A stretch of DNA of 64,000 nucleotides. Origin: Candidatus Xenobia bacterium. Its GTDB lineage: Bacteria; Vulcanimicrobiota; Xenobia; Xenobiales; QWHO01. The stretch is from contig BTUM01000005.1 in NCBI GenBank assembly GCA_045863235.1, positions 129,154 to 193,153 on the forward strand, read 5' to 3'. Positions 1-3,000 of the stretch are shown in pieces; positions within the stretch are counted from its first letter, which is position 1; each line of letters begins with the position of its first letter. The position numbers were made by a program.

Positions 1-3000
1 CCGCCACGTTCGGGCAGGGGCTCTTTCTGGTGGGAGGTTCGGGGGGTGTGATCCTGACCTCGCCCGACGGCGTCACCTGGACCCAGGCCGTGAGCGGTAC
101 GGGCAACATCCTCTGGGGAGCCACCTTCGCGCGTGGTCTGTTTGTGGTCAGCGGTCAGTTTGGGACCCTGTTGACCAGTCCGGACGGTCGGGCCTGGACC
201 GCTCGGCCCTCGGGGGTGAACAGCTTCCTGTGGCAGGTGATCGAAGGGCCGCCAGGGTTCGTGGCCGTGGGCGATCAGGGGGCCATCACCTTCTCACCGG
301 ATGGGATCAACTGGACGGCTCAGGCCTCACCAACGGGCGAGGTGCTGCGAGGCGTGACCTTCGGCCGGGGGGGATTCGTGGCCGCCGGCAGCCAGGGGAC
401 CTTGCTCGGGTCCGATGACGGTCGAGCCTTTCGCCTGCTGGACTCCCCGGTGGCCGACGTCCTCCGGGGCGTGACCTTTGCCGATGGCACCACCTATGTA
501 GCCGTCGGAGACGAGGGTACCATCTTGCTGTCTTATGATGGCCGGGACTTCTTCATCGACCAGACGGCCGACCCCGAGGAACTCTGGGCCACCACCTTCG
601 CCAACGGCATCTTCCTGGCCGGCGGGGGAGAGGGGAGGCTGCTCGTCTCGAGCGACGGCCAGAGCTGGCGCCGGATCGAGTCGGGCACGGCCGAGAACCT
701 CTATGCGGCTGCCTTCGGAAACGGGCGTTTCGTAATGGTCGGCTCGCGGGGAGCCATTCTGACCTCGACCGATGCCCTCACCTGGACGGCCGTGCCCTCT
801 CCGACGGACCAGAATCTCTACGGCCTGGCCTTTCTGAACGGCCTGTTCCTGGCCGGCGGCCTGGAAGGTACCCTTCTGACCAGCCCCGATGGCCTGACCT
901 GGACTTCGGTGGCGGTTCCCTCGGTCCACGCCCTGCACGGCTTTGCCTTCGGGAACGGGGTATTCGTGGAGGGCGGAGCGGGCAGCCTGTTGACCTCGCC
1001 CGATGCGGTGACCTGGACCGTCAATGCCGTGGGGATCGGGCACTTTCAGACCGCGGCCGCCTTCGGCAACGGGGTCTTCGCGGTGCCGGGCCACGTGGGC
1101 CGGGTGCTGGTCAGCGCCGATGGAGTCAACTGGAGCCTGGTGCTGGCCCCCACCCAGGCCAACCTGAACGCGGCCCTCTTTGCCGGGGGCCAGTTCCTTT
1201 TGGGCGCCCAGGGCGCGGTGCTGACCTCGAGCGATGCCAGTAGCTGGGCTCTCCACGCTGTGCCGACCGACCAGAACGTGCGCGGGCTGGCTTTCGGCAA
1301 CGGTCGTTACGTGGCCGTGGGGGGAGGGGAGGCTCTGCTCTTCTCGGTGGACGGGGTCCGCTGGGAGGCCGGGATCATCGAGTGACCGGGCGAGAGGGCC
1401 CTTCGGCCCTCTCGCCCGTGGAAGTGGTATCCGGAGCCGGACTTGAACCGGCACGCCGCGAGGGCGCCAGCTTCTCGAGCTGACGTGTCTTCCATTCCAC
1501 CATCCGGACAAGAGCGGTCGACAGATTGGCGACCCTGGCGAGACTTGAACTCGCTACCCCCGGCTTCGTAGACCGGTGCTCTGATCCATTGAGCTACAGG
1601 GTCATTGACTGGCAGACGCGGATGGCCTCGAACCACCGACCTTTGCGTTCAGAGCGCAACGTTCTTCCTGCTGAACTACGCGTCTATATATTCCTATTTA
1701 TTGTTGAATAGGAATAAAAATGGTAGGCTCGGAGAGATTCGAACTCTCAAGCACCTGCTTCTGAAACAGGTCTGTCTTCCAATTGCAGCACGAGCCCGGG
1801 TGGAGTTCCTGGCTGACTCTCTAAGGAACGCGATTCAGGGCTGAAAAGTAGAAACCACCGGAGTGAGCTCGCGGTGGGTGGGGGAGAGGCCGGTCCTGGA
1901 AGCTGGACTAGGCGCTCGTGCCACCCCCGCGGCGGCGAAGCAGAAGGCCCTGGCGTTGACGAAGCTGCGGTCGTAGCATGATGATGGCCTCCTGTCTTTG
2001 TGTGGTCGCTCGGTTGGAGCTGACCCGGTCATTATAGGCGAGTCAGGGCGGTGGCGTCAACCCTTAAATAGGAAAAATTAGAAATTTTGACAGCAAGCTA
2101 TGGTAGATTTCCGAAGAATCTGTCTTCCAGTATTGTCAGTTCCAACGGGTGGCAGCCGCCCAGAAGCCGACGATCAGGAAAGCTTCGGCCATACCGGCCA
2201 CCAGATTGAGCAGCAGGGCCACGACGGCGGTCGGCCTGGATGATTCGCGAATGAGAGCAAGGATGGCCAGCACCATGCCCGCCAGGTGCACCACCGGCCC
2301 GGCCAGGAAGGCCAGCAGCAGTCCGGCGCCCATGGGGTCGCCAAGGGCCCTGGTCGGACTCGGCAGCTCGACCACCAGCATCGTCCACAGGGCCAGCAGG
2401 GCTGGATATCCCAGGCCCAGCAAGAGGGCCATACGGCCGAGCTTTGGCGCTTTCATGGAGGTGGTTTTCAGAGCTGGAGGGCTTTCCCCTTTCTTGCTCA
2501 ATGAATTTTATTCAATGTCACGACGGGCGCTCAGAACCATTGCGACGGTTTGGTTGAGGGTACCGTCTGCTCAGGGCGGTCAGCCCGGAAAGGTCCACCG
2601 TTCTGCAGGGCGTTACCGTTCCCACCGGGGGGGGGCAGGCTTTTTGTGTTGGCGATCCGGGCTTGTGCTGAAGGGCCCCGAGGGTTGGGCCTTGAAGGCC
2701 GAACGGTGACCCTCGCCTCTCCACCGCTGGCTGGTTTCCATGTGATGACCAAGCCAACCGGGCCCATCTGCAACCTCGACTGCAAGTACTGCTTCTATCT
2801 CGAGAAAGAGCGCCTCTACCCGCCCGGGACCGACTGGCGCATGGCCCCCGAGACGCTCGAGTCCTTCATCAAGCAGCACATCGAGGCCCATTCCGTGCCC
2901 GAGGTGATCTTCGCCTGGCAGGGCGGCGAGCCCACGCTACTGGGCGTGGACTACTTTCGCCTGGCGGTCGAGTTGCAGAAGAAATACGCCGGGGGCAAGC

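Follow-up and report, generated by a model that had tools for sequence, protein, structure and literature searches.

How bacteria regulate single tRNA genes is a largely open question, and the spare tRNA array for which control has been worked out is governed by a protein repressor, according to the available text of PMC8421152 and PMC10272220. The 64,000-nucleotide stretch of a Candidatus Xenobia genome analysed here (the window) raises the question in compact form. Within less than 700 bases, it carries four tRNA genes, each with an anticodon that recurs elsewhere in the genome in a second gene quite unlike it, behind a promoter, a Shine–Dalgarno site and a 23-codon ORF rich in Leu, Arg and Gln codons (Table 1). 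The first-pass annotation had described this arrangement, all parts of which were located on the minus strand, as an attenuator that senses the codons read by the tRNAs it controls. We consider it very likely that the unit is a ribosome-mediated transcription attenuator that works like a leader-peptide attenuator and closes a feedback loop on tRNA supply; the backup tRNAs would probably be made only when ribosomes stall on their codons. Leader-peptide attenuation is known for amino-acid synthesis genes, and its use on tRNA genes was not found in the literature searched, which consisted mostly of papers free of subscription, without supplements. A codon-matched leader would feed the decoding rate directly back on tRNA synthesis and would explain the silent look of spare tRNA sets. 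Because such a leader names the tRNAs that the cell expects to lose, the purpose of these sets becomes testable.

Table 1. Features of the spare tRNA unit, with positions counted from the first nucleotide of the window
Feature	Position	Strand	Remarks
Promoter, sigma-70/A-type, TTGACG-18-TATAAT	2060-2031	-	11/12 match; 0.2 expected per shuffle
Shine–Dalgarno site AGGAGG	1993-1988	-	8 nt 5′ of leader ATG
Leader ORF, 23 codons, MLRPQLRQRQGLLLRRRGGGTSA	1979-1908	-	Translatable ORF; codons 2-14 are the predicted sensor
Antiterminator 5′ arm, G-rich, leader codons 16-20	1933-1921	-	Predicted duplex with terminator 5′ side
Antiterminator 3′ arm	1881-1870	-	Overlaps 7/9 paired bases of terminator 5′ arm
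Intrinsic terminator	1877-1844	-	Hairpin 1877-1855, interrupted T tract 1854-1844
tRNA-Leu(CAG)	1797-1721	-	77 nt; short variable loop; A37, A73; CCA encoded
tRNA-Gln(CTG)	1685-1610	-	A1-U72, G73, A37
tRNA-Arg(ACG)	1603-1527	-	A20, A37
tRNA-Leu(GAG)	1509-1425	-	Long arm; C33 replacing U33; A37
Perfect 14-bp GC-rich hairpin	1387-1418		Between operon end and convergent gene

As in a leader-peptide attenuator, a promoter and a translatable short ORF lie upstream of the regulated genes, and both are kept in relatives (the promoter in G046, L065, L067 and L071). The ORF is presumably translated; in the naked RNA, the Shine–Dalgarno site is predicted to pair with leader codons 11–13, a fold that hides it (z −3.0). 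At the other end of the operon, the GC-rich hairpin is a probable end terminator and is retained in G046 and G106. The leader itself is identical at 72/72, 70/72 and 67/72 nt (100, 97 and 93%) in three relatives, whereas the gene adjoining the unit is 90, 89 and 82% identical in the same genomes. One of the changes in the leader is synonymous, and the remainder give Leu or Arg codons.

This conservation bears on the possibility that the unit is left over from a mobile tRNA array and is decaying, with an ORF and hairpins that are non-functional or due to chance. The four tRNAs are array-like and unlike the housekeeping copies, the distribution of the unit is patchy and one relative, G054, contains tRNA fragments. 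However, the leader is better conserved than its neighbour, none of the four tRNAs is damaged, each ending in CCA and scoring between 46 and 65 bits in Rfam, and contigs assembled from RNA libraries are deeper over the unit than over its flanks in two studies; we therefore regard decay as very improbable. In these two studies, a close relative yielded single contigs that run from about 2009–2015 through the terminator and all four tRNAs, at depths of 19 and 13, with 4.75 or less in the flanks; their beginnings fit the promoter, weakly. Contigs, which cannot measure termination or attenuation, cross the terminator in three of four studies, and read-through RNA can thus exist. No leader-only piece was seen among the contigs of the four studies; run X2 comprises only the tRNA end and the flanks at low depth, where absence of cover is uninformative. 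The spare tRNAs would be charged and used, and the genome encodes glnS (above the cut-off), a TadA-like deaminase and TrmD.

The leader is written largely in the codons that the downstream tRNAs read. The four tRNAs read 12 of the 22 codons after the ATG, compared with 20.0% of codons across 3,817 long ORFs from the same genome (P = 3.5e-4, binomial test), and a recount agrees with the earlier figure of 12 among the first 16 (P = 3.4e-6). Leu, Arg or Gln codons account for 14/22, against 24.3% in the background, and two of 8,499 short ATG ORFs of 20–24 codons match the level of the leader, which is itself one of the two. The leader also contains three kinds of codon that none of the four tRNAs reads: CTA, CAA and CCG. 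An enrichment in codons tied to the downstream genes, as a leader-peptide attenuator displays, is thus seen both in these counts and in a permutation across units (below). When the 42 tRNA cluster heads of the genome were scanned strictly for a promoter, a short ORF and a terminator, one was recovered, that of the window; the same scan missed a related unit on contig C12.

The end of the leader and the RNA that follows it can be folded in two mutually exclusive ways. The terminator hairpin (−12.8 kcal/mol) is followed by TTTCTACTTTT, the T tract reading TTTTTGCTTTT in G046, and is absent from the listing of a stock terminator scan because its stem is bulged. The competing antiterminator duplex is predicted at −26.9 kcal/mol, a strength equalled in 2/1000 codon shuffles. 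In a fold scan that took the ribosome footprint to extend to +12, the probability of the terminator was ~0 with A-site codons 2–14 and ~1 from codon 15 on; the naked RNA folded as antiterminator, with a terminator probability of 0.00. The scan reproduces the behaviour proposed earlier, an antiterminator when the leader end is free and a terminator when it is covered, so that in silico the position of the ribosome sets the structure. In this model, the description of the leader as a sensor holds for codons 2–14, but not for the run of CGC (Arg) codons at 15–17, which is part of the pairing arm; the matches among sensing codons therefore come to 9/13 by anticodon and 11/13 by amino acid.

These folds suggest how the unit would operate. 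RNA polymerase would start near 2024, the expected transcription start, and a ribosome would follow it through the leader. If the Leu, Arg and Gln codons were read without delay, the ribosome would cover the G-rich arm at the leader end, the terminator would fold and transcription would end at the hairpin, before the first tRNA. A stall at codons 2–14, or failure of a ribosome to load, would leave the arm free to pair with the terminator's 5′ side, and polymerase would read on into the four backup tRNAs. The natural trigger is more likely to be loss of, or damage to, housekeeping isoacceptors than amino-acid hunger, because extra tRNA does not cure hunger. A classical attenuator for Leu, Arg and Gln starvation that happens to control tRNA genes seems improbable. 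Starvation would stall the ribosome, and the sensing codons do match better by amino acid than by anticodon. However, only the four tRNA genes stand before the end hairpin, with no gene for biosynthesis, transport or a synthetase; extra tRNA would supply no amino acid; and leaders of this type hold many synonymous codons (5/6 Leu and 5/6 Ser codons in block A of the Acidobacteriota arrays discussed below), as for the sensing of isoacceptors.

The unit had been called a classical translation-coupled attenuator. Translation-coupled it appears to be, but it is not of the four-segment trp type, because the naked RNA folds as antiterminator and there is no protector stem; in the four-segment attenuators of the trp, his and leu operons, a protector 1:2 stem makes untranslated RNA terminate. 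The T-box riboswitch also senses tRNA status and switches a terminator. No Rfam T-box match was obtained in 1300–2700 up to an E value of 1, tRNAs being the sole Rfam matches at the window unit, and sensing in the window unit appears to proceed through a translated ORF, with tRNA as the output. The closer likeness is to the attenuators of amino-acid operons (leuL, ilvL, hisL and trpL, and the ilvB motif), which, in the available text of PMC8384417, PMC2965389 and PMC11109978, share a short translated leader enriched in particular codons, an antiterminator that overlaps an intrinsic terminator and a stop codon 20–40 nt before the hairpin. Unlike these, the window unit regulates the decoders of the sensed codons rather than enzymes, transporters or synthetases, samples several isoacceptors and reads through as naked RNA.

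Two further systems respond to translational stress. The whiB7/wblC uORF attenuator, as described in the available part of PMC10274678, shares antitermination upon stalling and a response to tRNA or synthetase loss, but it controls a transcription factor, whereas the window unit controls tRNA genes with matched codons; a VapC tRNase has been linked to whiB7 induction (PMC10287673, available text). The Anabaena trn operon, or L-array, shares silent supernumerary tRNAs that are induced by translational stress; the accessible portions of PMC8421152 and PMC10272220 describe 26 tRNAs, against four here, and a DNA-binding repressor, TrcR, at the promoter, and the words attenuation, leader and terminator are absent from the available text of the former. 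With only four genes, though all are supernumerary, the window unit does not qualify as an L-array. Short-arm Leu tRNAs related to that of the window (the short variable arm reported for the Leu-CAG tRNA is indeed present) lie in long arrays and in phages. Phage tRNAs that evade host anticodon nucleases likewise differ from the host's own in the anticodon loop (PMC10264068), but the window unit is chromosomal, bacterial and equipped with a sensor, and the available text of that paper makes no mention of attenuation. In PMC13714241, as far as its text is available, 3′ ends near tRNA genes were excluded.

The likeness to whiB7 suggests another reading, in which the leader is a general translation-stress sensor, any stall induces the operon and the match in codons is vestigial or incidental. 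Because the naked RNA is antiterminated, the switch would open if initiation were blocked or a drug stalled the ribosome early; the paralogous C12 unit and the Acidobacteriota locus L139 use leaders with nearly all amino acids, and antibiotics that act on the ribosome induce the Anabaena array (PMC8421152, available text). Against this, the make-up of the leaders varies with the tRNAs that follow from one unit to the next, a single Acidobacteriota array containing complementary leaders, and synonymous codons are kept. As the sole input, general stress sensing is unlikely; as a second input beside codon-specific feedback on tRNA supply, it is compatible with the data.

The comparison across units begins with close relatives. 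By DNA search, the unit, or its Leu tRNA in a leader context, was found in 5 of 401 genomes of the phylum, the same count as in the first-pass annotation, and a pattern search added G060, bringing the total to 6 of 40 genomes in the order. In G054, a tRNA-His takes the place of the tRNA-Gln and the leader has three His codons, exactly as previously reported. The two-Leu unit of G110 is present as described, but its support is weak because, as in L102, the helix formed by the leader's partner does not overlap with the terminator stem; its leader fits the Leu/Gln/Arg set (z 2.0) better than its own Leu-only set (z 0.6). In G060, a leader with Ser, Tyr and Leu codons precedes Leu, Tyr and Ser tRNAs, a weak match (z 1.1).

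The units were selected by eye following a search that started from short-arm Leu tRNAs, with a pattern that required A37 and matched 7 genome, 38 metagenome and 6 viral loci. Among the metagenome loci, 11 have a leader and 27 have none within the available DNA; at the six viral loci, no leader lies directly before the matched tRNA, the array heads being mostly outside the sequence examined. Whole spare arrays divided into blocks occur in two Acidobacteriota genomes and at seven metagenome loci. Block A begins with a leaderless ORF in which 13 of 23 codons are for Leu, Ser or Tyr, before four Leu, four Ser and one Tyr tRNA, whereas the leaders after it hold 1–3 such codons in 40–43 and precede tRNAs for other amino acids. 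The stop codons in these blocks lie 24–29 nt before the hairpin. When leaders and tRNA sets were permuted across units, the true pairing was the best of 120, and it tied for the best of 720 when two identical sets were included; in this test the units were chosen by eye, kin are dependent, G110 and G060 contribute little and the codon frequencies of the window genome served as background for every unit. L052 was left out of the counts, its unit being identical in sequence to that of L004 despite a different taxon label, and none of the conclusions draws on G230. The finding that leader codons change with the tRNA set in unrelated units strengthens the proposal that tRNA genes lie behind leaders written in their own codons.

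Of 10 matches to a pattern in 401 Acidobacteriota genomes, four were examined, and one of these, L139 (G462), is a tRNA with a leader: 38 codons, 19 of 20 amino acids and a strong terminator, with a short-arm Leu-CAG near the contig end. A separate match, in G072, was rejected, as it was not called as a tRNA. One actinobacterial genome (G403, L060–L063) has four tRNA arrays with comparable leaders and hairpins but weaker T tracts, each array head consisting of a promoter, a strong Shine–Dalgarno site, a 43–52-codon ORF that ends in Gly codons and a hairpin; the leader region had no match in the plasmid collection.

The switch was modelled in these units as well. In 22 of 24 units, a co-transcriptional model sequesters the terminator arm until the ribosome reaches the leader end and then frees it, the failures being G110 and L102, in which mutually exclusive structures were not found; in the equilibrium model, a switch is seen in a 25th unit, G060. 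By contrast, a full-length equilibrium model keeps the terminator at every ribosome position in G106, L065, G054, G110 and L102, and the C12 units barely change in it; the predicted switch of these relatives would therefore depend on folding kinetics. Only 12 of the 24 units have an antiterminator stronger than expected from codon shuffles (P ≤ 0.05).

The second unit, on C12, was confirmed, as was the presence of its leader in four genomes. Its leader, terminator and tRNAs are as first described, but the leader is not a loose match to Pro and Tyr; it holds 19, 19, 18 and 20 of the 20 amino acids in the four genomes, where the chance of at least 19 in 34 codons is about 0.6%. Such a leader, with nearly all amino acids, looks like a general sensor. 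The interval from the C12 terminator to the tRNA-Pro contains, at L001:2361-2640, a conserved ORF of ~63 codons with a Shine–Dalgarno site and a long hairpin that is invariant across the four genomes; Rfam gave nothing credible in this 350-nt interval.

The window switch may also serve a narrower purpose. Fifteen of the first 16 leader codons begin with C, including CTA, CAA and CCG, and C-starting codons amount to 15/22 overall against 31% in the background (P = 3.6e-4), an excess that is not independent of that in Leu, Arg and Gln codons. All four spare tRNAs combine G36 with A37, whereas G37 is present in all 14 of the remaining credible G36 tRNAs in the genome, two false tRNA calls having been set aside; a loose pattern for G36 tRNAs in four relatives matched at chance level. 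The three codons that the spares do not read are read by G36–G37 tRNAs. According to the available text of PMC5175351, VapC11 cuts Leu-CAG, Leu-GAG and Gln-CTG, with cleavage mapped at G37/U38, and three of the four spare tRNAs are of these species. The genome has 50 PIN-domain matches; two of them (C3:45902-46261 and C15:13268-13624), picked by a motif and the only ones compared with the PDB, have VapC11/VapC15 as their sole matches (E 1e-6 to 3e-5, weak). Moreover, loss of m1G37 derepresses leuL through its CUA codons (PMC8384417, available text), and trmD is present in the genome.

These observations are compatible with a G37-free backup for the most used C-starting codons, operated by the same switch and induced by VapC11-like cleavage or TrmD failure, although several findings make this doubtful. 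A37 is common in array-type tRNAs generally and may therefore be inherited, the seed pattern itself demanded A37 for short-arm Leu tRNAs, and the spare tRNA-His of G054 has G37. The VapC11-like PIN occurs in 4 of 6 order genomes with the unit (not G110 or G060) and in 2 of 34 without it, but its distribution follows genus, which confounds the co-occurrence. In Escherichia coli, loss of m1G37 causes stalls at Pro, CGG and CUA codons but not at CUC, CUG or CUU (PMC8384417, available text), and the operon lacks a Pro tRNA. The reading also leaves the Leu/Ser/Tyr and all-amino-acid units unexplained. The A37 substitution is not mentioned in the available text of bioRxiv 2022.05.14.491930. It is a tentative suggestion, with perhaps a minor share of the probability, that the unit is an inducible antidote in which a C-codon leader detects the loss of G36–G37 tRNAs and releases A37 replacements for CTG, CTC, CAG and CGC. 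If so, the unit would be one member of a cross-phylum class of tRNA genes regulated by their own decoding rate.

Several minor features were recorded along the way. In the Acidobacteriota, two paralogous attenuators lie in series around a single tRNA-Thr (L054:4478-4973 and L057:10048-10554), and the arrays include a long-armed tRNA with anticodon TAT that resembles the allo-tRNA group of PMC5389517 (available text); G401 and G402 contain two or three such arrays. An 18-gene array in L007 (G396) has its head cut by the contig end. In G054 (L005:1577-1880), the interval between Leu-CAG and His holds two tRNA halves in the order 3′ then 5′, their acceptor strands complementary, and a tRNA-Arg(ACG) with an extra arm of ~30 nt. 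The C12 'Tyr' tRNA (L001:2092-2182; also L103, L104 and L105) has a long D stem, a long arm and a drifting anticodon loop, and in G104 the same body carries anticodon GCA (Cys) and A73; judged by these features, it may deliver a different amino acid or have no coding role. The window genome carries a tRNA-Sec and a second tRNA-Gln(TTG), which lies at the end of C67 and has a damaged acceptor. The C33 of the spare tRNA-Leu(GAG), in place of the nearly universal U33, is kept in several distant units (L006, L102 and L066). Finally, an AT-rich hairpin at window positions 1686–1720, between Leu-CAG and Gln, keeps its stem and varies its loop in relatives, and is possibly a processing signal.
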